Shown: piece by piece, positions 5,245-55,975 of the stretch
Numbering within the stretch: the first letter of the stretch is position 1
Layout: every line of letters starts with the position of its first letter
Notes under the pieces: generated by a model
What the model was told of the DNA's origin: nothing
Database searches by the model: none
What the model saw: the letters and a program-made list of their open reading frames with translations, nothing else
Made by a program: the position numbers and the translations under genes
From: Bacillota bacterium
GTDB taxonomy: Bacteria; Bacillota_I; Bacilli_A; RF39; UBA660
Assembly: GCA_015059495.1 (NCBI GenBank)
Contig: SVAI01000001.1
Span: 735,811 to 799,810 of the forward strand
Reading direction: 5' to 3'
DNA: 64,000 nucleotides

Positions 5245-7566
5245 TTATTCATCATCTCCAAAGAAATCATCAAAGAATTCATCATCAGAAATAACATTTT
5301 CATCAACTACAATACTATCGGCATCAACGTTAACTCTTGGTTTAGGTACATCCATAGTTACACTAGGTTGTACAACATTTGGAGTTTGTACAGGTACAAC
5401 GTTTGGTGTAGAAACTGGAGTAACTTGTGGTGTTTCAACAACTGGAGTTGGTTTAACATCAACTTCTGGAGCAGGAACACTAACTGGTTCCTTCTTAATC
5501 ATATTATCAATACTTGGAAGTTCAATATTAGCTTCCTTAATATCATCTTCAATAATCTTCTTATTTTCAATAGCATCAGCTTTTTCTTCTTTTTCTAATT
5601 TAGCAAGTTCAGCTTTCTTTCTTGCTTCTTCAGCATCAAGCTCTGCTATCTTTTTATCAATATCTCTCATCATTTGATCGATATCAAGTTCAGATAAACC
5701 TCCAGGTCCAAAAGGATTCTTAGGCATTCCACCACCCATAGGGTTAGGTCCCATTGGATTTGGTCCCATAGGTCCAGGACCCATTGGAGGAATTCCTCCC
5801 ATAAATGGATTAAATCCTGGTCCCATACCCAATGGTTGAGACATTGAATTCATTGTTTGTTCTTGTTTTTTAGCTTTAACATAAGCTTTAATATCAAATA
5901 CTTCGATTGGTTTTACTTCTCTTGTTGGATATTTAGCTGGAGTTGTTGTATGTCCCCAATCTGTTTTAAAGTTAACTGGTAACTTAGTCTTAAATGGATG
6001 TGATCTTAAACGTAATAAAATCGCATCAGGCCAGTGCATATGTTGTAAGTCAGTAACTGTAATTAATGGAGTTGAAGCAGTCTTATCATCTTTCTTAGAC
6101 TTAACTTCACCACAGACTTTAGATATTTCTTCTAAAGCAGCTAACTCAGTAGAAATTAAGTAAATTGTGTTACCGCAGTTACCTTTAATTACTTCTCCTA
6201 CTTCTTTACCATATACATCATTTAACTGTGCATAGTTTTGAATAATAAATGTAAATCTTATTTTACGTGAACGTGCAGCAGAAACCATTGAATCAACATC
6301 TTTTAATGGAGGCATGTTTGCAAACTCATCTAAGATAAAGTTTGTTCTATATGGTAATTTACCACCATTTTCTTGAGCAACATCAATTAATGTTTCATAA
6401 CATTGTTTAACAAAGATAGTAGCAAGGCCATGATATGTTGTTTTTTCATCATGAATAATTAAGAATACTGCAGTCTTACCCTTACCAATATCTCTCATAT
6501 CAAAATCACTATGACCTAACATTTCAGATAGGTTATCACGTGATGTAAATGTTCTAATCTTTTCTCTAAATGAAGCTAAGATACCACCTTGAGTTTCATT
6601 AGGAGATTCAATAGTACCAGATGCAAATGTATAAGCATTTGACTTAGTACCCATCATTTTAAAATACTCGTTAATATATTTAGATGTACCAAATCTCTCA
6701 TCACCATCAGTAGTCATCGCATTAATTGAGTTTAAGTTAGTTTCTTCTTCTTTAGCATTTTCAAATAATGATAATGCACAACCTGCAAAGAAACTTGATG
6801 CAGACTTTTCCCAGAATGGGTCACTCTTATTAGTAACATCTAAGATTGAAGATGAAACATCATCTAAAAGCTCAATTGCTTTATCTTTATTACCTGCTTT
6901 ATAAAATTGATATGGTAAAGCAAGTGGATTCCATGCAGAACCATGTGTTGGTTCTCTGAAGTTTAATACAATAACTTTATATCCTAACGATTTTAAATAT
7001 TCAGCGCTTTCTTGATAAATTTCACCCTTAGGGTCTGTAATAATCATTGATTCATTATTCTTAGCTAAAATATTAACCATTGGTTTAACAACACATAATG
7101 TTTTACCTGAACCAGATGAACCAATAACTAATGAGTGGAACTCACCATTATCAACCCAAACATGACCTTTTTTATCAGCATAAACAGGAATACCAGCAGC
7201 ATTAGTTGATTGAGCATTAGAATCAATCATTTCAATATCATCTGCTTCTTTCATTTCCTTTAATTTAGCCCATCTATTATATCCTTTTTCTTCTTTTTCT
7301 CCTATTTTTAACCCTATTCCAGATCCATCTTTAGAGAATATATAAGAAGATACACTTGTAAATATTACTATTAAAGATGCAATAAATAATGTAAATGTAA
7401 TACCAATATATTTACCTGTAAAAGCTTCAAATGGTACTAAACCATAAAGTTTTCCATGAGCACCAAATTCAACAAAATTCAATACTGCTATTGCACATAA
7501 GTAAAGTAATAGTATACAAAATATAATAAAAATTATTAAATCATCTTTTGATACCCTAAATTTCAT
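5245..7566 (-). CDS. TraG/VirD4(TrwB)-family type IV coupling-protein-like ATPase with disordered C-terminal tail
   Basis: Two N-terminal TM helices. Walker A VIGSSGSGKT, ITDPKGEIY, SAWNPL, Walker B NFILDEFANMPPL, and a TraG-D_C-like IIQNYAQL stretch. The C-terminus carries PMGPNPMGPNPMGGG repeats, a coiled coil, a P/T/V-rich stretch and an acidic DDEFFDDFFGDDE end. Confidence 0.6.
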   Translation of the reverse strand: MKFRVSKDDLIIFIIFCILLLYLCAIAVLNFVEFGAHGKLYGLVPFEAFTGKYIGITFTLFIASLIVIFTSVSSYIFSKDGSGIGLKIGEKEEKGYNRWAKLKEMKEADDIEMIDSNAQSTNAAGIPVYADKKGHVWVDNGEFHSLVIGSSGSGKTLCVVKPMVNILAKNNESMIITDPKGEIYQESAEYLKSLGYKVIVLNFREPTHGSAWNPLALPYQFYKAGNKDKAIELLDDVSSSILDVTNKSDPFWEKSASSFFAGCALSLFENAKEEETNLNSINAMTTDGDERFGTSKYINEYFKMMGTKSNAYTFASGTIESPNETQGGILASFREKIRTFTSRDNLSEMLGHSDFDMRDIGKGKTAVFLIIHDEKTTYHGLATIFVKQCYETLIDVAQENGGKLPYRTNFILDEFANMPPLKDVDSMVSAARSRKIRFTFIIQNYAQLNDVYGKEVGEVIKGNCGNTIYLISTELAALEEISKVCGEVKSKKDDKTASTPLITVTDLQHMHWPDAILLRLRSHPFKTKLPVNFKTDWGHTTTPAKYPTREVKPIEVFDIKAYVKAKKQEQTMNSMSQPLGMGPGFNPFMGGIPPMGPGPMGPNPMGPNPMGGGMPKNPFGPGGLSELDIDQMMRDIDKKIAELDAEEARKKAELAKLEKEEKADAIENKKIIEDDIKEANIELPSIDNMIKKEPVSVPAPEVDVKPTPVVETPQVTPVSTPNVVPVQTPNVVQPSVTMDVPKPRVNVDADSIVVDENVISDDEFFDDFFGDDE

Positions 7567-7610
7567 ATATAATCACCTAATCTTTTATCATTATACTACA
7601 TATAATTAAT

Positions 7611-8384
7611 TTAATCTATTACATAATTACTATTTTTATAATTAATAATTACATTTGTAACATTACTACTTTCAGCAAGATAACCTTCTATTTTATTTAA
7701 TATAATACTATCATTACTATTATCTAAAATATTAATAATAGAATTAATATTATAAACATATAAAGCATCTTCTTTTCTCTCATCTATTAAAGTAATAACT
7801 TCATTATTATACTTTATTAAAACTAAATTATAATAATTATTAATATTATCATTATCTTCCATTGAAGATAAAACTATTATTTCATCTTCAACACCATTCT
7901 TATCTAAATCAATATCTACTACTTCATTAGTAGTTAAATATTTAAATGAACTAATACCATAATTTTGTAATAATAAATATTTATCATCATCATTTATTTC
8001 TCTAACAGTATATTCTCTAGGTACTACTTCAAAATCATTAGATACAGCAAGTAATCTACCTTTATAAGAAACAAATTCATATTTATCATTTAATAAATTC
8101 CATTTAGCAACATATTTTAATCTATAATTACCAAAATATTTATTATCTACAAATACCTTCATATTATTTAACGCTTCGATAGTATTTTTACTAGCCTTTG
8201 AAAAACTATTCTTCTCATATTTATATATGCCAGATTCACCAACAACCATATAATAAGTTGCAGTTTTTGTTGGTGTATTATTAGTTGTTGTACCTTGTTC
8301 TGGTTTACCAAGAACAAAGTACATTACTAATCCATATATTGAAAATATTACAATAGCAATTATTAACCCTTTTATATTTTTCAT
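7611..8384 (-). CDS. membrane-anchored hypothetical protein
   Basis: 257 aa with an N-terminal signal-anchor. It sits between the T4CP-like gene and the hydrolase gene. Confidence 0.4.
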   Translation of the reverse strand: MKNIKGLIIAIVIFSIYGLVMYFVLGKPEQGTTTNNTPTKTATYYMVVGESGIYKYEKNSFSKASKNTIEALNNMKVFVDNKYFGNYRLKYVAKWNLLNDKYEFVSYKGRLLAVSNDFEVVPREYTVREINDDDKYLLLQNYGISSFKYLTTNEVVDIDLDKNGVEDEIIVLSSMEDNDNINNYYNLVLIKYNNEVITLIDERKEDALYVYNINSIINILDNSNDSIILNKIEGYLAESSNVTNVIINYKNSNYVID

Positions 8385-8395
8385 ATCTTTTTCTC

Positions 8396-10789
8396 CTATT
8401 TAGCTGGTCTACAGAAATATGTACCATTGCCTTTATATAGTGAAACACTAACTTGATCTGGTTGTGGTTTAGGTACTGTATGATTTTTGTCTTGCCATTG
8501 ACCATGTGCAGCAAACTCTTGGTTGTTACCAATATACATTGATACATGACCTATACTCTTATAATTATCACTATTAGCATAACCATTACCTGCATAGAAT
8601 ATTAAATCTCCAACAGACAAGCTGCCACTAGAAATAACTTTACCATTCTTTTCACACCATCTATATATTTCACCAGATGTATCTGAACTATCATAAATTT
8701 TATAACTGAAGTGTCCATATGCTCTAGATACCATTGAAGAACAATCTACATATCCATCTTGATGCCTATTACTTTGAGAATAACTCCAACTATCATATGT
8801 AGCAACAGCATATTCAGCTACTCTCTTACCTAATGTTAATAAATCACCAGTAGCAACCGCATCTCCTTCTTCAGTACATGATTCTCCACCTAAATCAAAT
8901 ACTTGTTGTCTAGTTTCACTCATCCTAGAAACTTGCCATTTAGCATAAGCACTTTGATCTTCATCTGTAGTAGGAACACAACTTGCCTCTGATCCAGTAC
9001 ATTTATTTCCTTCAGCACAAGCAGCTTCAACAACACTTTGCCTTTCTTCACTTAAATACTCTCTTATATAAGGAAAGTAATAACAACCTCCAACACCTGA
9101 TCCACCTGGATTTAGCCAAACACGACCTATATAAGAATACTTCATCATCATTTGATATGCAGTAGCATAATTATGATTCTTTATATTATTAATAAATCCC
9201 ATAACACCAGCATCAAATGAAGGGAACTGTTGACATTGTTTTTCACTAGCACCGTTAAAACATCCTAAACCCCAATAGTTGTTAGATGAACCACCTGGGT
9301 CAAATCCTTCTCTAACAGCTCTAACTACAACCATCTCAGGGTTAAAGTTATTTTCAACTGAAATATCATATATTCTTCCAGCATTAGATTTAAACGCTCC
9401 ATTATTAACATTAGACATAACATAATTAATAAATTCTTCTCTAGATAATGTAGTTTCAGTTAATGATATATCACTACAATAACTACCATATTCTCCACCA
9501 GAACCACCAAATTTAACTACATTATAAATATGTCCTTCACCAGTAGCTTTCCAGTCATAGAAATGATATAAAATACCATGATAATTTTGATCCATTTTCT
9601 CAACTAAATACCAAGCAGCCCATGGTGAAAAACTATCTTTATCTGCATCACCTTGTTTAATATAATTAGAATCAACTGTTGAATCTATCCAATCCTTTAT
9701 ATAGTACATATCATCTTGAGATAATACATATACTTCTCCATCATAAGTTGTAGTAACTTCTTTATAAGTAAAATTATCATCTATTTTTAATTCACTTAAA
9801 TTTATAGGATCTAAAGAGAATACCTTATTATGAGTATATTCAATAGCATCAAATATAACTTGATTTTCATCATCTTCTTTAGGGTCAAAATAAGGTTGAT
9901 CTATTTCAAACTCACATGTATTAGATGACATATTATTAGAATTATAATATAAGTTAGTTCTATAAATAATCGCTAATGCTCTTAAAACTTCTTCATTATC
10001 TATTTCTTTATAATTTTTAACAGCCATTTGATAAGCTAAATATTCTTTATTAGTAACAGTTTCTTCTTTTTCTACTAAAACAGTACCTTCCCATTCTTCC
10101 CATTTTACTTTAACATTATCACAATAATTAACATACATATTAGTTACATTAATCTTTTCATCAGTAATAGATGATGTAACAATAAATACTACTGCAATAA
10201 CTAGTAAAATTAAAAGTAATATTCCAAGAATAGGTAATAAAAAAGGTAATACTCTTTCAACAAGGAATACAAATATCTTCTTTCTAACAACAGCTTTAGT
10301 TTTTTCTTTAGCTACTTGAGCAGCAGCACTTGCAGCATTTTCTCCTTCTTCTTTTGCTTTTTTTACTACTTGATTAGCAGCTCCAACTGCACTAGCCATC
10401 TTACTAGAAGCTTCTTTAGCCTTGTTATTAGCAGTAGTCTTCTTATTTTTATCATCTTGATTTTCATCATTTTTCTTTTTGTTATTATTTCTTAAGTTAT
10501 TAATTTTATTATTAATAATTTGAGACATTGAATCTTTAGTTGGTAACTTAGAAGCACCAACTCTATTTCTTTGTCTAGCATTTTGAAGTTGACTATCCAT
10601 TACAACATTCTCATTATTATCTACTTCTTCTTCAACATCATCTTCAATATCAGGAACATTATTTAATGGAGTTTCCATTTCTTCATTTTTAATATCATTA
10701 TCATTTAAAGTATCTATTGGATTAATTTTCCTAGGTTGTCTAGGCAATCCATTGGTAGTGTTATTATTATTTTCATTATTATCACTCAT
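8396..10789 (-). CDS. membrane-anchored cell-wall hydrolase with C-terminal NlpC/P60 (C40) peptidase domain
   Basis: The N-terminus is N/K/E-rich low complexity with one TM segment (LPFLLPILGILLLILLVIAVVFIV), followed by a large extracellular region. The C-terminus has NlpC/P60 signatures (DCSSMVSRAYGH...GDLIFY...IGHVSMYIG). Cys-rich mid-region. Confidence 0.6.
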   Translation of the reverse strand: MSDNNENNNNTTNGLPRQPRKINPIDTLNDNDIKNEEMETPLNNVPDIEDDVEEEVDNNENVVMDSQLQNARQRNRVGASKLPTKDSMSQIINNKINNLRNNNKKKNDENQDDKNKKTTANNKAKEASSKMASAVGAANQVVKKAKEEGENAASAAAQVAKEKTKAVVRKKIFVFLVERVLPFLLPILGILLLILLVIAVVFIVTSSITDEKINVTNMYVNYCDNVKVKWEEWEGTVLVEKEETVTNKEYLAYQMAVKNYKEIDNEEVLRALAIIYRTNLYYNSNNMSSNTCEFEIDQPYFDPKEDDENQVIFDAIEYTHNKVFSLDPINLSELKIDDNFTYKEVTTTYDGEVYVLSQDDMYYIKDWIDSTVDSNYIKQGDADKDSFSPWAAWYLVEKMDQNYHGILYHFYDWKATGEGHIYNVVKFGGSGGEYGSYCSDISLTETTLSREEFINYVMSNVNNGAFKSNAGRIYDISVENNFNPEMVVVRAVREGFDPGGSSNNYWGLGCFNGASEKQCQQFPSFDAGVMGFINNIKNHNYATAYQMMMKYSYIGRVWLNPGGSGVGGCYYFPYIREYLSEERQSVVEAACAEGNKCTGSEASCVPTTDEDQSAYAKWQVSRMSETRQQVFDLGGESCTEEGDAVATGDLLTLGKRVAEYAVATYDSWSYSQSNRHQDGYVDCSSMVSRAYGHFSYKIYDSSDTSGEIYRWCEKNGKVISSGSLSVGDLIFYAGNGYANSDNYKSIGHVSMYIGNNQEFAAHGQWQDKNHTVPKPQPDQVSVSLYKGNGTYFCRPAK

Positions 10790-38762: not shown

Positions 38763-40961
38763 TTAATTTGTTTTTAAAGTGAAGTATCCTGGATTACCAT
38801 TTGTAGGATCATCAACACGAGCATATTCTTTGTCAGTATGAGATGAATCATATGTTGTACCTGCTCCACCTTTGATATTTATAGATTTTAGAAACATATT
38901 AGTGCTACTTGTAACTGCCGAAGTATTAAAATTGTTGCCAACATACAACGTTGTTAATGCACTCATTCCATTAAACATTGATAACATATTTGTTACATTT
39001 GAAGTATTAAAATTACTTATGTCCAAACTTGTTATACCTTTCGTTCCAGAAAACATTGCGGACATATTTGTTACATTTGAGGTATCAAGATTACTTACAT
39101 TTAAGTTAGTTAGACTACTCATTCCGGAAAACATTGCAGACATATTTGTTACTTTTGAGGTATTAAGATTACTTACATTTAAATTAGTTAAACTTCTCAT
39201 TCCATAAAACATATCTGACATATTCGTTACATTTGAGGTATTAAAACTACTTATATCAAAGCTAGTCAAACTATTCAATCCATAAAACATATAAGACATA
39301 TTTGTTACATTTGAAGTATTAAAATTACGCAAATCTAAACTTGTTAAATTATTCATTCCATTAAACATTGATGACATATCAGTTACATTTGAAGTATTAA
39401 AATTATGCAAATCTAAACTTGTTAAATTATTCATTCCACTAAACATACTGTTCATATTTTCTACATTTGAAGTATCAAAATTTCTTATATCTAAATTTGT
39501 TAGACCACTCATTAAAGAAAACATACTAGACATATTTGTTACATTTGATGTATTAAAACTACTTATATCTAAATTTGTTAGACTACTCATTTTATAAAAC
39601 ATAAAAGCCATACTTGTAACTTTTGAAGTATCAAAATTACTTATATCAAGTACTGTTAAATTGTTCATATTACTAAACATACTATTCATGCCTGTTACAT
39701 TTGAGGTATCAAAACTACTTAAATCTAACGTTGTTAATGCACTCATTGTAGAAAACATATATGACATAGTTGTTACTTTTGAAGTATCAAAATTTCTTAC
39801 ATCTAAAATTGATAAGCTTTGTAAATTGTCAAACATTGACACCATATTTGTAACTTTTGAGGTATTAAAAGTGCTTACATCTAAATCTGTTAGACTATAC
39901 ATTGCATGAAACATACTGTACATATTTTCTACATTTGAAGTATCAAAATTACTTATATCTAGTACTGTTAAATTGACCAATCCATCAAACATACTACCCA
40001 TATTCGTTACTTTTGAGGTATCAAAATTACTTACATCTAAAGTTGTTAATGCACCCATGCTAGAAAACATTTTAGACATGTCAGTTACTTTTGAAGTATT
40101 AAAGATATTTAAGTCTAGGTTTGTTAAACCCAGCATATGGTAAAACATATATGATGAATCACTATTCATATAAATAGTATCCGCTTCACTATAAAGATAT
40201 ACAGTTCCATTATCAAACCACGCATATACAAGAATAGGTTCATTAAAATCAGAAACTATAACCTTATCAGCACCTTCTGGTGGTGGATTCAAACTTCTCA
40301 CGATAGCTTTTATTGACGTATTTCTATCACTATATGACGCATAAGTACTACCAGTTGATTTTTTAAGATACTGGTTAAAATATTTACCATTTTTTAATAT
40401 TACTTCCTTATAATTCTTTTTTAATGTTGATCTAACTGTTATTTTAGAACTTAAAGTTTTACTTAATACTTCATCATTGTCAGCATCTTCTTTAATCCAT
40501 AATCTTAAGTTATATGATTTAGAGTCCCCTGCTGCTATAGTATCTTCATAGAACTTAGCAGCACTAGATGCATTAGATAACGTGGGTTCAACACTATTAT
40601 TATCGCCATATGTATGAATATGTCCATTAACATCTACTCTTAAATTTTCACCAGCAATTTGACTATCATTTAAAGTTTCCAAATTTATTGATATATCTGC
40701 TGCATGTTCACATATATTTGTTAAAGTAAATTTATATGGAGTTGTATATACACCCTTACCATCTTTCATTGGAAATGAATTAGTTAAACTAATAGCTTGA
40801 CTTCCCTCAGTAAAAGTTATTTCAAAACAATCTGATACTACTACATTTGTACTCTCTTGTGATACATTAAATACCCATAATGCATAAGAAGAACTTAGCA
40901 TTAAAGATAATACTAATAAAATACCAATAACTAATAATGTAATTTTATGTTTCTTCTTCAT
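38763..40961 (-). CDS. DUF285 (PF03382)-repeat surface protein, paralogue A
   Basis: N-terminal signal/TM, then about 17 tandem ~25-aa repeats of the form LTxLDISNFDTSNVTNMSSMFxGM, and a C-terminus GGAGTTYDSSHTDKEYARVDDPTNGNPGYFTLKTN. Confidence 0.75.
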   Translation of the reverse strand: MKKKHKITLLVIGILLVLSLMLSSSYALWVFNVSQESTNVVVSDCFEITFTEGSQAISLTNSFPMKDGKGVYTTPYKFTLTNICEHAADISINLETLNDSQIAGENLRVDVNGHIHTYGDNNSVEPTLSNASSAAKFYEDTIAAGDSKSYNLRLWIKEDADNDEVLSKTLSSKITVRSTLKKNYKEVILKNGKYFNQYLKKSTGSTYASYSDRNTSIKAIVRSLNPPPEGADKVIVSDFNEPILVYAWFDNGTVYLYSEADTIYMNSDSSYMFYHMLGLTNLDLNIFNTSKVTDMSKMFSSMGALTTLDVSNFDTSKVTNMGSMFDGLVNLTVLDISNFDTSNVENMYSMFHAMYSLTDLDVSTFNTSKVTNMVSMFDNLQSLSILDVRNFDTSKVTTMSYMFSTMSALTTLDLSSFDTSNVTGMNSMFSNMNNLTVLDISNFDTSKVTSMAFMFYKMSSLTNLDISSFNTSNVTNMSSMFSLMSGLTNLDIRNFDTSNVENMNSMFSGMNNLTSLDLHNFNTSNVTDMSSMFNGMNNLTSLDLRNFNTSNVTNMSYMFYGLNSLTSFDISSFNTSNVTNMSDMFYGMRSLTNLNVSNLNTSKVTNMSAMFSGMSSLTNLNVSNLDTSNVTNMSAMFSGTKGITSLDISNFNTSNVTNMLSMFNGMSALTTLYVGNNFNTSAVTSSTNMFLKSINIKGGAGTTYDSSHTDKEYARVDDPTNGNPGYFTLKTN

Positions 40962-43115: not shown

Positions 43116-43550
43116 CTATAATAAAACATTAATTATTTTATTTATTATTAGTTCTTTATTCGAATACAAACTAACATCTATAAAAGTATTTAATATACCA
43201 TCATCTAGTTGGTCTACTTCTAAAGTTACAATTTGATAATTATTCTTAGTTAATTCATCTGAATATATATCACTAACTGTTATATTATTTATATTTTTGT
43301 TTTCTTTGTTAATTTTAATCATATCTATATTTTTATATTTATTAGTATCTAAATAATTAACAGTTAATTCTATCTTACATATATCATCACAACTAACATA
43401 TCCTTTTATTTTTTTAACATCATATATTTTAAAAATAAATAAAGATATTATGATAATACTAAAACTAATTAATATTAAATATATTAATATATTATATTTT
43501 GGTTTTAAACTTCTTAAATAACTTATATTATCAACCATTAAAACCACCAC
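43116..43550 (-). CDS. short membrane-anchored accessory protein of the bacteriocin exporter (HlyD/LcnD-like, truncated)
   Basis: 144 aa. N-terminal TM then a small beta-rich domain. It overlaps the ABC gene by 20 nt and precedes the peptide genes by 10 nt. Confidence 0.4.
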   Translation of the reverse strand: MVVLMVDNISYLRSLKPKYNILIYLILISFSIIIISLFIFKIYDVKKIKGYVSCDDICKIELTVNYLDTNKYKNIDMIKINKENKNINNITVSDIYSDELTKNNYQIVTLEVDQLDDGILNTFIDVSLYSNKELIINKIINVLL

Positions 43551-45579
43551 TTACTACTAAATCAAAATGATAACTAGGCTTAAAATGAGAAATAATAATG
43601 AAGGTTTTATTATTATAATAGTTAAAAATATTATTAATCATTTTATTAGCATCACCTTCTTCTACTGCACTAAATGTTTCATCAAAAATTATTATTGGGT
43701 TATCTTTTAATAATTCTCTTGCCATGATAATTCTAGATCTTTCTCCACCACTCAAATTAGAAACATCTTCTCTTATCATAGTATCTAATCTTAAAGACTT
43801 CTTATTTAATATATCATTAACTTCACATAATTCTAATACAGTATTTAATTTATTCTTATCAACATCCATATTTAAAGTAATATTATTAAAAATAGTATCA
43901 TTAAATATAGCTTCATCTTGAGATATATAAGAAATATTATTTCTAATAGTATCTAAACTATAATCTAATATATTAATATTATTAATTTTAATACTACCTT
44001 TAATTGGATTATATAATCTATCTAATAATTTAAATAAAGTACTCTTACCACTACCACTTTTACCCATAACTAATACTTTACTATTTTCTCTTATTTTTAA
44101 AGAATAATTCTTAATTGGATAATCATACATATTATAAGAATAATCAATATTATTAAACTCTATATCACCATTTTTAAATGACTCTTTTTTCTTATTACTT
44201 TCTTCCTCCAACATAAGAAAATCATTTATTTTAATAAAACTTCTTCTTATATATACATACTTAGGTATTAAATTAATAATATCTTTTATTGGATTAATAA
44301 AAAACATATATAAAGAATTATAAGTAATTAAATCTAATAATTCTAAAGTATTATTAATTACAAACATAAGAGCAAAACTATTTAAGATAAATAAACCTAT
44401 TTCTAATATAAAAGTATTAATAAAATTATAAATATTTATTTTATTATTAATTGAAAAGGTATTATATAAATATTCATATATTTTATTATTTAACTTACTC
44501 ATAGTAAAAGATTTATTATTCTTAACACTTATAATGTGATTTAAACTATTAGTAAGACTAGAATTAAAACTAGTCTGATAATTAATATTATCCTCAATAT
44601 AATTATTAATTGGTTTAATCCATATTAAATTATTAATTAAATAGATAAATATAACTAATAATAATATAATTGTTAATTTCACATTAATAATCATTAATAC
44701 AATTATAGATGTTATAACTAATAATAAATTTAATACTAAAGTAACAAACATATTAGCAAATAATTCTTTTAAGTTATTTAATTCATTAACTCTAGTAATT
44801 ATTTCACCACTGGTTCTATTACTTATAGCATTCAAAGGGATATTAAATATATGTTTAATAAAATCAGGTAATAAACTACAATCAATATTTTTATTAATAT
44901 AATTTTCAAAATAAGTTCTTAAATAATCTAATATTACTTTTAATAAAGTTATTATAAAGAATATTAAAATAATAAAATAAAACATACCCTTATTATTACT
45001 ATCTACATTACCAATAATTACCTTTATCATAAAAGAACTAATTATGGATACAATAGTTAGTAATAAACTAGTAATAAACATTCTTATTATTAATCTATTA
45101 TCACTTTTAATATATCTTAAAAATATATTCAATAATTTATTATCTTTAGAGTAATTAATTACATTAGATATTAAACTAAATTCAATAATAATATCTTTAT
45201 AAATACTTTTAAATTCATCATACTTTAGTTTTCTTAATCCTTTAGCAGGATCCATAACTAATATATACTTTTTAGTTATTTCATAAACTACTATATAATG
45301 CCTTAAACCATTTTTTAATTCAACGTAGGAAATAAACGGATAAACTAATTTACTCTTTATTAAATCATCAAAACTAATTCTTGTACCCCTTCCATCAAAC
45401 CCGTACCTTTTAGCTGCAGCAATTAAATTAAAAGCACTAATACCTGATGAACTAATACATGAATCTATTTTTATCTTTTCTAGTGATATATTACCACCAT
45501 AATATTTAATAATAGATAGTAAACAAGCAGCACCACAATCCTTAATATCTTGTTGTCTAACAACTACTTTTTTAAACAT
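43531..45579 (-). CDS. bacteriocin-processing ABC transporter with N-terminal C39 double-glycine peptidase domain
   Basis: N-terminus VVRQQDIKDCGAACLLSIIKYYG (C39 Cys motif). Six TM helices. NBD GKSGSGKST, LSGGERSR, Walker B-like IIIFDETFSAVE. Confidence 0.8.
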   Translation of the reverse strand: MFKKVVVRQQDIKDCGAACLLSIIKYYGGNISLEKIKIDSCISSSGISAFNLIAAAKRYGFDGRGTRISFDDLIKSKLVYPFISYVELKNGLRHYIVVYEITKKYILVMDPAKGLRKLKYDEFKSIYKDIIIEFSLISNVINYSKDNKLLNIFLRYIKSDNRLIIRMFITSLLLTIVSIISSFMIKVIIGNVDSNNKGMFYFIILIFFIITLLKVILDYLRTYFENYINKNIDCSLLPDFIKHIFNIPLNAISNRTSGEIITRVNELNNLKELFANMFVTLVLNLLLVITSIIVLMIINVKLTIILLLVIFIYLINNLIWIKPINNYIEDNINYQTSFNSSLTNSLNHIISVKNNKSFTMSKLNNKIYEYLYNTFSINNKINIYNFINTFILEIGLFILNSFALMFVINNTLELLDLITYNSLYMFFINPIKDIINLIPKYVYIRRSFIKINDFLMLEEESNKKKESFKNGDIEFNNIDYSYNMYDYPIKNYSLKIRENSKVLVMGKSGSGKSTLFKLLDRLYNPIKGSIKINNINILDYSLDTIRNNISYISQDEAIFNDTIFNNITLNMDVDKNKLNTVLELCEVNDILNKKSLRLDTMIREDVSNLSGGERSRIIMARELLKDNPIIIFDETFSAVEEGDANKMINNIFNYYNNKTFIIISHFKPSYHFDLVVSGGFNG

Positions 45580-50432: not shown

Positions 50433-52397
50433 TTATGTTGTTTTTAAAGTAAATAACCCAGGTTTTCCATTATCTGGATCATCTACTCTAGCTAGCTTAG
50501 TATTTATATAACCAACACTTGATTTAGTTGTACCAGCACCACCAATTAAATTATCACATCCAGCAAATACACTGTTAAAATAATCAGCGCTTATTCTTTC
50601 AGTATCCCATTCACTAGAAACATATATAGTTTCTACAGATGTCATATCTTTAAACATATTATTAATATTACTAAGAGAAGAAGTATTAAAACTACTTAAA
50701 TCTAAAACTTTTAATGTTGAAGCACCCTCAAACATACTTGCCATACCTGTAACTTTAGATGTATTAAAACTTGTTATATTTAAAGATGTTAGTTTTACCA
50801 TATTACGAAACATCCATGACATATCTGTTACATTTGAGGTATCAAAATTAGATAAATCCAATTCTTCTAACTTAGTATCTCCGCTAAACATTACTGACAT
50901 ATAGTTTACATTTGATGTATTAAAAGAACTTAGATTTATACTTTTTAATTCATGCATATCACTAAACATACTCGTCATATTCTCAACTTTGGAAGTATCA
51001 AAATTACTCAAATCTAAGGATTGTAATGCCCATAAATTAGAAAACATATAAGACATATTTGTTACATTTGATGTATTAAAATTACTTATATCTAAATATG
51101 TTAACGAGCCTAAATCATCAAACATATTACTCATATTTTCAACCTTAGAAGTATCAAAATTACTTAAATCTAAGGATTGTAATGTCCATAAATGAGAAAA
51201 CATATTTGACATATCAATAACATTAGATGTATCAAAACTACTTAAATCTAAATAAACCAATTCAGTATTATTATCTCCCTTATCAAACATCCATGACATA
51301 TCAGTAACTTTTGAGGTATCAAAGTTAGATAAATCTAATCTTTCAATACTACATAGATACGAAAACATATGAGACATGTTTTCTACATTGGAAGTATCAA
51401 AGGAACTAATATTAAGATTAATAAGACCCTGATCTTCATTAAACATACTACTCATATCAGTTACATTAGACGTATCAAAATTAGATAAGTCCAATGTCTC
51501 TAAATGAATCATACCATAAAACATACTAGACATATCAGTAACTATAGATGAATCAAATCTAGACACATCAATTTCACTAAGATTGTAAAGAGATGAAAAC
51601 ATATGTGACGAATCTTCGTTTAAAAATATTTTAGGACTATCACTATAAATATAAATAATACCATTTTCAAACCACATCAAAACGTCACTTTTTGAATCAG
51701 CAGTAGAAACTACAACATAAGTATCATTAGAAGGAGCTTCTTGAGAAAATAATACTTTTTCAACATTACCATTATTTCCAGATAATTCATATATTTTATC
51801 ATTAATATACTGACCATCCATAAGTTTAGCACCAACTTCTACTCGCTTTAATCTAGAAATTACAACTACTTTTGAATAAAACTCCTTATCAGCACTTTGC
51901 TCAACTGTAGAATTTTCATCAATGTATAATCTTAAATCAAAGCTTTTTGAAGTATTACCTTTTAAAGAACCTGACTTGATATTTTTTGATGATATTGCAT
52001 TATTATTTATTATAGAACTATTATCATTATTTTCTATATCCCCTAAATTAAACGGAGCAAACTGATTAATTTTTACTTTAACAGCACTTAAATCAATAGT
52101 ACTACCATCTAAAGTTTCAAGATTAACATCATAGTCTATATCATAATTACACACATTACTAATAGTAAAAGTATATGGATCTAATTCTCTTGCATCTTTA
52201 TCACTTAAAGGTATAGTGTTTGTTAAGTTAATCGCATTACCATCACTAAAAGTTATTTCAAAGCAGTCAGTTCTAACAACATTACTACCACTCTGTGACA
52301 CGTTAAAAATATAATATGCATAAGATATACCTATTAATATACTAGTAACTAAAAAGATACCTATTACACATAATAGTATTTTACTCTTCTTACTCAT
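50433..52397 (-). CDS. DUF285 (PF03382)-repeat surface protein, paralogue B
   Basis: N-terminal signal/TM (homologous to the N-terminus of paralogue A), about 13 LDLSNFDTSNVTDMSxMF repeats, and a C-terminus GGAGTTKSSVGYINTKLARVDDPDNGKPGLFTLKTT. Confidence 0.75.
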   Translation of the reverse strand: MSKKSKILLCVIGIFLVTSILIGISYAYYIFNVSQSGSNVVRTDCFEITFSDGNAINLTNTIPLSDKDARELDPYTFTISNVCNYDIDYDVNLETLDGSTIDLSAVKVKINQFAPFNLGDIENNDNSSIINNNAISSKNIKSGSLKGNTSKSFDLRLYIDENSTVEQSADKEFYSKVVVISRLKRVEVGAKLMDGQYINDKIYELSGNNGNVEKVLFSQEAPSNDTYVVVSTADSKSDVLMWFENGIIYIYSDSPKIFLNEDSSHMFSSLYNLSEIDVSRFDSSIVTDMSSMFYGMIHLETLDLSNFDTSNVTDMSSMFNEDQGLINLNISSFDTSNVENMSHMFSYLCSIERLDLSNFDTSKVTDMSWMFDKGDNNTELVYLDLSSFDTSNVIDMSNMFSHLWTLQSLDLSNFDTSKVENMSNMFDDLGSLTYLDISNFNTSNVTNMSYMFSNLWALQSLDLSNFDTSKVENMTSMFSDMHELKSINLSSFNTSNVNYMSVMFSGDTKLEELDLSNFDTSNVTDMSWMFRNMVKLTSLNITSFNTSKVTGMASMFEGASTLKVLDLSSFNTSSLSNINNMFKDMTSVETIYVSSEWDTERISADYFNSVFAGCDNLIGGAGTTKSSVGYINTKLARVDDPDNGKPGLFTLKTT

Positions 52398-54882: not shown

Positions 54883-55638
54883 TTATAAAATAGTACTCTT
54901 TCTAGCTAATAATCTATCATTATCAAAAGCTTGTAAACCATATACAAAAGTTCTATCTAAATATATACTCTTAGCAATCTTTTCTATTTCTTCATCACTA
55001 AACTTATATGATGATGCATTAGCAACACTATATAATGAGAATTCTCCATTAAGTAAATATATTAATTTAAAATTAATATTATATATACCAAAAGATACTT
55101 CAACATAATTTAACTTAGTAATATCATTACTATCAAATCTAACAGATATAACTACATCATTATTTAAATTTAAATTACTAAACTTATCAACAATAACATT
55201 ATATCTATTTAATAAATCTTGATACTTCTTTCCTACATTTAAATATTCAATAACTATAGATGGATCAATATTCATATTAATTCTATTTTCAATATCACTA
55301 ATACTTTCTTTAATTAATTTAATATTATTATTTAAAATTATAAAATATAATAATGATTCTTCATTAATATATCTTAATGATTTAAAATATGGTGTTTCAT
55401 AATAAGTAGATAATCTATAATTATCTAATACACTTAAAGGAGTTAATTCTTTATAATCTCTAATAAATGATTGATATAAACTATTAAATTCTTTAATATA
55501 ATCTAATAAATTAATACAATTATTATAACTAATATCTACTAAAGAAGAATCAAATCCTGAATATAATATATCATCTATTTTTTCTATACTTCTAGTAGAT
55601 ACTAAATTAATACTTCTTTCATATTCTTTTGCATTCAT
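54883..55638 (-). CDS. hypothetical protein
   Basis: The ORF track extends this to 55854 across two tRNA genes. I start at ATG 55638 (MNAKEYERS...), which has a GGGGTGAT RBS. Confidence 0.4.
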   Translation of the reverse strand: MNAKEYERSINLVSTRSIEKIDDILYSGFDSSLVDISYNNCINLLDYIKEFNSLYQSFIRDYKELTPLSVLDNYRLSTYYETPYFKSLRYINEESLLYFIILNNNIKLIKESISDIENRINMNIDPSIVIEYLNVGKKYQDLLNRYNVIVDKFSNLNLNNDVVISVRFDSNDITKLNYVEVSFGIYNINFKLIYLLNGEFSLYSVANASSYKFSDEEIEKIAKSIYLDRTFVYGLQAFDNDRLLARKSTIL

Positions 55639-55731
55639 AACCATCACCCCAAAAAACAAATATATATTAACATAATAATTATTAATAGACAATAAAAAAA
55701 AGTATCTATAAGATACTTCAATAAACAAAAA

Positions 55732-55806
55732 TGGTGCCGGAGGAAGGAATTGCACCCCAACCTGCTGCATACAATGCAGCTGCTCTAGAAATTGAGCTAC
55801 TCCGGC
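55732..55806 (-). tRNA. tRNA-Thr(UGU)-like gene lacking G18G19 and with GUGC in place of TΨC
   Basis: GCCGGAG-TA-GCTC-AATTTCTA-GAGC-A-GCTGC-ATTGTAT-GCAGC-AGGTT-GGGGTGCAATTCCTTCC-TCCGGC-ACCA. Acceptor, D and anticodon stems are perfect. Anticodon UGU. The D-loop has no GG. The T-arm reads GGGG-UGCAAUU-CCUUCC. Confidence 0.5.
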
Positions 55807-55819
55807 ATAAATAAAAAAA

Positions 55820-55895
55820 TGGTGGACCCTTAGGGATTCGAACCCTAGACCCACTGATTAAGAGTCAGTTGCTCTACCAACTGAGCTAAGGGTCC
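55820..55895 (-). tRNA. tRNA-Lys(CUU)
   Basis: GGACCCT-TA-GCTC-AGTTGGTA-GAGC-A-ACTGA-CTCTTAA-TCAGT-GGGTC-TAGGG-TTCGAAT-CCCTA-AGGGTCC-ACCA. Canonical cloverleaf, encoded CCA. A TGgTATAAT extended -10 lies upstream (55908..55916, minus strand). Confidence 0.85.
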
Positions 55896-55943
55896 AACAC
55901 AATATAAATTATACCACAAATTTTAAAAAAGTATAGTAAAAAT

Positions 55944-55975
55944 TAAAAAAAGTAAGAAATTTCTTACTTTTGTTT
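55944..55975. terminator. bidirectional intrinsic terminator after the ABC-2 permease gene
   Basis: Palindrome AGTAAGAAATTTCTTACT with an A-run and a T-run. Confidence 0.5.

Follow-up and report, generated by a model that had tools for sequence, protein, structure and literature searches.

To our knowledge, loss of G18G19 and U55 is almost unheard of among elongator tRNAs of bacteria. The 64-kb stretch of DNA analysed here (the window) carries a tRNA-Thr(UGU) gene from which these nucleotides are absent, which raises the question of whether the tRNA still serves translation, is decaying, or has been taken over for another purpose. The tRNA elbow is used by RNase P, by the A, P and E sites of the ribosome and by T-boxes, and a destabilised elbow slows translocation (PMC4810234). 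The first-pass annotation had seen in the gene a cloverleaf-perfect tRNA reminiscent of those dedicated to cell-wall synthesis in staphylococci. The window is chromosomal DNA of a spore-forming Firmicute, with approximately 25% G+C and nearly all genes on the minus strand, among them hrcA-grpE-dnaK-dnaJ, RNase Y, MiaA, PBP1, SpoIIP, SpoIIIAH, CotJB/C, GerM, phosphoketolase and acetate kinase. The MAG from which it was taken (a contig of ~1.26 Mb at 25% G+C, with SpoIIP, SpoIIIAH, CotJB/C, GerM and SpoIID-like genes) appears to represent a small-genome rumen spore-former.

The tRNA-Thr gene and its operon

The locus is composed of the following features:

55732..55806, minus strand: tRNA-Thr(UGU) allele with a non-canonical elbow (ARAGORN; Rfam 52.1 bits; identical copies; covariation across alleles)
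55820..55895, minus strand: canonical tRNA-Lys(CUU), first gene of the two-tRNA operon (ARAGORN; Rfam 75.1 bits in all loci)
55908..55918, minus strand: extended -10 element TGTGGTATAAT, 12 nt upstream of tRNA-Lys (direct reading)
55694..55719, minus strand: terminator-like hairpin GAAGUAUCU-UAU-AGAUACUU with a U run, 12 nt after the CCA
55948..55969, minus strand: hairpin with a T run just after the ABC-2 permease gene (direct reading)
54883..55638, minus strand: 251-aa ORF, function not assigned (no family match; forms a divergent block with tRNA-Thr)

ARAGORN called the gene as tRNA-Thr(tgt) at 55732-55806, confirming its presence and placing it on the minus strand. Covariance-model scoring, which the first-pass annotation had proposed as a check, gave 52.1 bits with Rfam RF00005 (gathering score 29 bits), compared with 75.1 bits for the neighbouring tRNA-Lys(CUU); together with the ARAGORN call and the cloverleaf covariation described below, this score places the gene in the tRNA family. 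Its sequence, 5′ to 3′, is GCCGGAG UA GCUC AAUUUCUA GAGC A GCUGC AUUGUAU GCAGC AGGU UGGGG UGCAAUU CCUUC CUCCGGC A CCA. Reading of this sequence bore out the perfect acceptor (7/7), D (4/4) and anticodon (5/5) stems and the encoded CCA that had been claimed for it; A73 precedes the CCA, the anticodon loop is AUUGUAU and the variable region has 4 nt. The description "cloverleaf-perfect" does not extend to the T arm (UGGGG-UGCAAUU-CCUUC), which is 1 nt shorter than in the CGU alleles described below and in which a 5-bp stem is replaced by a U49.C65 mismatch followed by two G-U and two G-C pairs, or in an alternative register by a stem with a bulged U63.

The D loop, AAUUUCUA, is devoid of G and therefore of G18G19, positions 18 and 19 being U and C. 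In the T loop, UGCAAUU, U55 is replaced by G55 and C56 is kept. Where a standard elbow joins G18G19 to U55 and C56 of T54-Psi55-C56, the window tRNA consequently has U.G at 18-55 and C.C at 19-56, the missing partner of the latter pair being G19. The reported loss of both elbow partners is thus correct for the D loop and for U55, and incorrect for C56. Within the anticodon loop A32 and U38 can pair, and the minimum free energy fold extends the anticodon arm into a 7-bp hairpin with a 3-nt loop. This arm (55767-55783, positions 27-43; also seen in L170 and L156) is a near-perfect palindrome, GCUGCAU-UGU-AUGCAGC, in all UGU alleles. Assembly error could be ruled out, since the identical 75-nt sequence is present in five further assemblies (L162, L168, L174, L177 and L178).

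As previously noted, the gene lies just 3′ of a canonical tRNA-Lys(CUU), upstream of which the extended -10 element is found. It would form the second cistron of a small operon consisting of its own promoter, tRNA-Lys(CUU), tRNA-Thr and its own terminator. The tRNA-Lys is 100% identical across every related contig, and the -10 motif, which was absent from the output of a simple -35/-10 scan and was found by direct reading, recurs in L157 and L174. A hairpin and U run occupy the same place after every Thr allele, with a stem sequence that differs from allele to allele; the window copy was unlisted by a consensus terminator scan because it has fewer than three G-C pairs. Upstream, the hairpin at 55948-55969 separates the operon from the preceding genes. 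Rfam searches across the 64 kb returned only the two tRNAs, with no T-box or other RNA family, and the addition of 10 kb at each window end revealed no further tRNA.

The neighbours are LysM (x4), a PG_binding_1/SpoIID-like protein and the 251-aa ORF. The LysM and PG-binding/SpoIID-like genes cited as evidence of a cell-wall-rich neighbourhood are indeed nearby, but their adjacency is not conserved among related contigs: L154, L160, L168, L171, L173 and L156 have other genes in between, and in L164 and L165 a GerM-like gene directly follows the tRNAs and the LysM/PG cluster is absent after them. Likewise, the uncharacterised protein said to lie directly downstream (252 aa in the first-pass annotation, 251 aa here) is the next ORF, but the hairpin and U run at 55694-55719 stand between it and the tRNA-Thr gene.

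The 251-aa protein had no match in Pfam, NCBIfam or PADLOC and a PDB profile search was empty; the 54 remote relatives recovered by a profile search carry no Pfam domain that is informative. There was also no exact-protein match, probably reflecting a start-codon difference from the deposited annotation. The 54 representatives of the family (E<=1e-3) are mostly 250-290 aa in length. Conserved N-terminal NLVSTRS and SFGIY/FVYGL motifs were recognised, and the AF2 core is built of two halves, each a helix plus an antiparallel sheet, for which the PDB offered no convincing neighbour. We considered the protein as a candidate tRNA-using enzyme and found no support for this in the family, profile or PDB searches.

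Two allele classes at one site

Orthologous contigs were collected using ten homologues of the 251-aa protein (46-94% identity) and by scanning metagenomes for the 3′ end of tRNA-Lys. These contigs come from rumen metagenomes, those of L154 and L157 being from sheep, and yielded the second tRNA in ten distinct full-length forms, together with a truncated copy in L167. tRNA-Lys(CUU) is followed by Thr(CGU) in L157, L158, L159, L163, L166, L164, L165, L169, L172 and L173, and by a UGU form in the window, L162, L168, L174, L177, L178, L171, L170, L167 and L156; the first six of these UGU assemblies carry the identical tRNA-Thr sequence. The two classes are distinguished as follows:

CGU class (L157/158/159/163/166, L164, L165, L169, L172, L173): D loop AAUUGAUA; normal 5-bp T stem; T loop UUU(G/A)A..; anticodon loop with A32 and A38, pair 31-39 A-U; Rfam 58-63 bits
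UGU class (window group, L171, L170, L167, L156): D loop AAUU(U/A)CUA; T arm 1 nt shorter; T loop UGCAAUU, UGUAAUU or UUAAAUU; A32-U38, pair 31-39 C-G; Rfam 47-52 bits

An A19-U56 pair replaces G19-C56 in five of the six CGU alleles (L165 has A19.A56), and in the UGU class no 19-56 pair can form, C19 facing C, U or A at position 56. Between classes the tRNAs differ at 14-21 of 76 positions; within classes they differ at up to 8 (UGU) or up to 16 (CGU), and the accompanying tRNA-Lys at 0. Two individual alleles carry further oddities, L171 (119-193) having C73 in place of A73 and L169 (870-945) having G4.U69 in the acceptor stem. A G4.U69 pair makes vertebrate tRNAThr an AlaRS substrate (PMC9976931).

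Comparison of the window with L163 and L157 revealed 93-99% nucleotide identity over the ABC-2 gene and tRNA-Lys, and 57-81% over tRNA-Thr and the 251-aa ORF; beyond this, identity to L163 is 92-99% over the LysM gene and a 116-aa gene, the L157 contig ending shortly after the LysM gene begins to be covered. The encoded proteins in this comparison share 97% identity for ABC-2, 98% for LysM and 47-48% for the 251-aa protein. Since the CGU form occupies the same site in contigs with near-identical flanks, the two forms behave as interchangeable alleles, and at this locus the UGU form is not an extra dedicated gene. L156, a more distant genome (ABC-2 68% identical), nevertheless bears a UGU-class tRNA, and the sister 251-aa alleles P0006 and P0007, which are 78% identical, are paired with CGU and UGU tRNAs, respectively; the classes must therefore be old and have been reshuffled. 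Judged from these alignments, the locus is made up of two old allele classes, CGU and UGU, which are alleles and not paralogues. The P0006/P0007 pair also rules out strict co-variation of tRNA class with 251-aa allele. No functional link between the 251-aa protein and tRNA-Thr emerged.

Relative to L163, L157 and L169 the divergent block at 54883-55806 is sharply bounded, which suggests allelic exchange or diversifying selection there. The tRNA locus is also an insertion hotspot (L154, L160, L161, L168, L171, L173, L178 and L156). Between the tRNAs and the 251-aa gene we found an M73 peptidase gene in L154, L160, L168 and L171, a GNAT gene and one other in L173, and ABC/FtsX genes in L156; L178 has an S41 peptidase gene between the ABC-2 gene and tRNA-Lys.

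A divergent block between near-identical flanks is also what would be seen if tRNA-Thr and the 251-aa gene formed a diversifying cassette, the UGU allele evading a tRNA-cleaving toxin or defence nuclease much as phage T5 tRNA variants escape AriB of the PARIS system. AriB cuts Thr(UGU) and has weak activity on Thr(CGU); it touches U16/U17, and altering position 39 blocks it (bioRxiv 10.1101/2025.02.04.636281); the motif around its cut site, U36-A-A-U-C-A41, is kept in the CGU alleles and in tRNA-Lys, and the UGU alleles have U38 and G39 within it as well as a changed D loop. However, this motif is general among ANN-reading tRNAs, and the block could have diverged because the 251-aa gene was selected or exchanged and the tRNA hitchhiked with it. 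Searches of the neighbours revealed neither a defence nor a nuclease family, and defence-system models searched against the unannotated window ORFs gave no match. The whole idea is an analogy with an E. coli system, and we regard an origin of the UGU allele in conflict as highly improbable.

Selection, decay and codon demand

Pairing is kept in 96.5% of cloverleaf cells over the ten distinct alleles, and in 9 pairs both partners have changed. This level of pairing was reached by 0 of 500 shuffles, and shifted registers were only 35-58% paired. The window and L170 have the odd D loop and short T arm in common and differ at 7 positions, 6 of which make up three compensated pairs (6-67, 27-43 and 30-40; P ~4.6e-5 under random placement). 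G1-C72, C2-G71, G35 and U36, which we take to be the Thr identity elements after the E. coli set, are invariant in all ten alleles, each of which also encodes CCA, and A73 is present in all except L171. The window tRNA therefore has the identity bases expected of a ThrRS substrate. Recognition as tRNA-Thr is set by acceptor pairs together with the anticodon (PMC9976931). The T-arm defect of the window tRNA is shared across the UGU class, and is old. Compensated changes, retention of the identity bases and CCA, and identical copies in six assemblies are not features of a pseudogene, and on this comparative evidence the UGU class is under selection. The earlier argument that the gene is not a decaying pseudogene is upheld by the compensated pairs, the cloverleaf pairing and the shuffles.

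We also weighed the possibility that the gene is a relic on its way out, a dead or nearly dead copy persisting in a transcribed operon beside an essential tRNA-Lys. Rfam scores are lower in the UGU class than anywhere else at the locus (47-52 bits, versus 58-63 for CGU and 75 for Lys); the class also has a T-arm deletion and a mismatch, and includes visibly weaker members: L156 combines a G27.A43 mismatch with a UUAAAUU T loop, L167 has an extra G-U and U56, and ARAGORN misses the L156 and L170 versions. ACG codons are, in addition, nearly absent. A relic would not be expected to accumulate three fully compensated pairs between two versions that both carry the deviant D loop and T arm, nor to keep its identity nucleotides and CCA invariant (A73 except in L171) or the same sequence in six assemblies; moreover, the terminator always follows the Thr gene and never precedes it. 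Taken together, these observations make a relic unlikely.

Codon usage indicates how much the locus is needed. The Thr codons of the 49 window ORFs are ACU 645, ACA 365, ACC 28 and ACG 13, so that ACG accounts for 1.2%, and AAG makes up 30% of Lys codons in the same set. With ACG at about 1% of Thr codons in a 25% G+C genome, little translational load falls on the locus. The two tRNAs of the operon contrast in this respect: the CGU tRNA reads a codon of ~1% use, whereas the adjacent tRNA-Lys(CUU) is heavily used and frozen.

The reading that we favour, with a probability of roughly one half, is that the UGU allele of the window is a minor tRNA-Thr with a shifted anticodon, on which translational selection is weak. 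The UGU class would most simply be derived from a minor tRNA-Thr(CGU), the reader of rare ACG codons. The steps would comprise C34 to U, A38 to U, pair 31-39 from A-U to C-G, the loss of one T-arm base, and changes to the elbow nucleotides. By the first of these a nearly idle tRNA would become a reader of both ACA and ACG, and tRNA genes that switch anticodon to meet demand have been documented (PMC3868979). The elbow contacts would have drifted furthest, while the parts required for making, processing and charging the tRNA would have been held by selection. On this view the window tRNA would still be expressed, receive threonine from ThrRS and work in translation, where it would supplement the reading of ACA and ACG, and possibly of ACU, probably with low efficiency. 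Because a CGU anticodon cannot read ACA, the near-identical CGU-bearing genomes must have a Thr(UGU) elsewhere, and we infer that a canonical tRNA-Thr(UGU) is present elsewhere in the genome of the window too.

Such a history resembles that of remoulded, anticodon-shifted tRNA genes, in that the same syntenic site and amino acid are retained with CGU in one form and UGU in the other, and the shift fits the codons actually used (PMC3868979, PMC3923123). It differs in that the shift is here accompanied by wholesale change of the elbow and anticodon loop, and in that both forms persist in near-identical backgrounds.

EF-Tu affinities were calculated with the additive model of PMC3239215 from pairs 49-65, 50-64 and 51-63, a mismatch having no tabulated value:

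Neighbouring tRNA-Lys: -10.3 kcal/mol
Thr(CGU) class mean across bacteria: -10.0 kcal/mol
L157, L172, L173: -9.7 kcal/mol
L165, L169: -8.2 kcal/mol
L164: -8.1 kcal/mol
Window allele: about -7.9 kcal/mol or weaker (mismatch untabulated)

The window tRNA is thus probably a poor translator, as would be the case if selection on a seldom-used tRNA were weak, or if the tRNA acted away from the ribosome. We prefer weak selection because the UGU form is interchangeable with a CGU form, because CGU alleles have weak T stems too, because no aa-tRNA-dependent enzyme was found among the scanned window ORFs, and because the 251-aa protein has no relevant family or fold. Several points count against a minor tRNA in translation. 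A merely redundant tRNA that is yet kept with compensatory changes needs explaining; the 19-56 pair cannot form, predicted EF-Tu binding is weak, the anticodon loop is closed by A32-U38 and ARAGORN misses some versions. In addition, G55 excludes pseudouridine-55.

Off-ribosome roles and elbow variants elsewhere

Staphylococcal non-proteogenic tRNAGly lack G18G19, as does the window tRNA, and the first-pass annotation had likened the gene to tRNAs of this type. Its product would then be a dedicated non-ribosomal Thr donor which escapes EF-Tu and feeds a Fem/MurM-type or other aa-tRNA transferase, for instance for a peptidoglycan side chain. The staphylococcal tRNAs (NP1-NP3, used by FmhB/FemA/FemB) likewise combine an intact cloverleaf with an altered D/T region, and in both cases the first three T-stem pairs are predicted to be weak for EF-Tu (PMC7826273, PMC3239215). 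For the window tRNA the weak T stem is predicted to cost approximately 2 kcal/mol or more of EF-Tu binding; the tRNAGly are also weak EF-Tu binders, with T-stem pairs A49-U65, U50-A64 and A51-U63 and with D- and T-arm determinants for FmhB (PMC7826273). In Bifidobacterium longum, an additional tRNA-Thr(CGU) that binds weakly has been flagged as a candidate for a non-translational role (PMC3239215), and selection keeps the window tRNA, as it would a donor.

In staphylococci, to which they are restricted (PMC7826273), the tRNAGly are extra paralogues beside proteogenic copies and occur together with Fem transferases and a Gly5 bridge, whereas the window tRNA is an allele of the Thr(CGU) locus which replaces Thr(CGU) in near-identical genomes, and only the window tRNA has G55, a shortened T arm and A32-U38. 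The search for FemXAB/MurM, MprF or cyclodipeptide synthases (CDPS) suggested at first pass was negative: among the 49 window ORFs of at least 100 aa there was no FemAB (PF02388), MprF, CDPS, L/F-transferase or other aa-tRNA transferase domain, and the 251-aa neighbour matches no family or fold. Many contigs do not preserve the linkage to the LysM/PG genes, the 78%-identical sister alleles of the 251-aa protein accompany different tRNA classes, and the CGU alleles L164, L165 and L169 are also predicted to bind EF-Tu weakly. The cell-wall interpretation is thus without support from the data at hand, and we consider a dedicated donor very unlikely.

A broader version would see the UGU allele as a neofunctionalised Thr-charged RNA pushed off the ribosome by the absence of an elbow platform, weak EF-Tu binding and a closed anticodon loop. 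It might be the substrate of an enzyme, so far unrecognised, that depends on aa-tRNA, or it might resist nucleases or act as a decoy in an arms race between strains; the co-diverging 251-aa orphan would be its partner. We regard this as quite unlikely.

To place the elbow of the window tRNA among known variants, phage contigs and 185,579 species genomes were scanned for tRNA-Thr(UGU) with a T loop beginning GGUGCAA, which yielded 116 distinct sequences; the pattern used for the species genomes, requiring TTGTA and GGTGCAA, gave 69 loci, none of them from the lineage of the window. Positions 18-19 are A-G in place of G18G19 in 98 of the 116 sequences, with G19-C56 kept, and a D loop without G was found in none of them, nor does any of the 116 come from the window's lineage. 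As a rule, then, G55 goes together with A18 and an intact G19-C56, and the window tRNA falls outside that class: it shares the anticodon and the UGCAA start of the T loop (G55, C56), but has U18 and C19. From these alignments the 98/116 pattern looks like A18/G55 covariation, of which our literature search found no description. The A18/G55 variant occurs in phages, Patescibacteria, Planctomycetota and DPANN archaea (viral L001-L081, genome L085-L153).

Metazoan mitochondrial tRNAs without an elbow offer a second comparison, having lost D- and T-loop nucleotides in AT-rich genomes with the stems kept; there, however, the L1 region and RNase P, as their partners, have evolved along with them (PMC4810234). 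The tRNA-Lys of the window is fully canonical, so the cell machinery must expect a normal elbow, unlike that of mitochondria.

A selected, elbow-deviant tRNA coexisting with a more normal allele amounts to a natural test of how far the elbow is needed when the codon is rare, and the locus would show how AT pressure yields anticodon shifts. It also calls for caution: relaxed translational selection by itself can produce a likeness to the cell-wall tRNAs of staphylococci.

Three further regions of the window were noted. At 5245-10789, between dnaJ and rmuC/recG, genes for a 773-aa coupling protein of the TraG/VirD4 type and an NlpC/P60 protein of 797 aa, both also found in L175, look like the remnant of a conjugative element. 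A C39-peptidase ABC exporter of the bacteriocin type at 43531-45579, followed by a 144-aa ORF without a family match, may represent a bacteriocin export locus. Two large DUF285/BspA-like leucine-rich-repeat proteins are encoded at 38763-40961 and 50433-52397, the second of which varies in length, with 654 aa in the window and 607 aa in L154.
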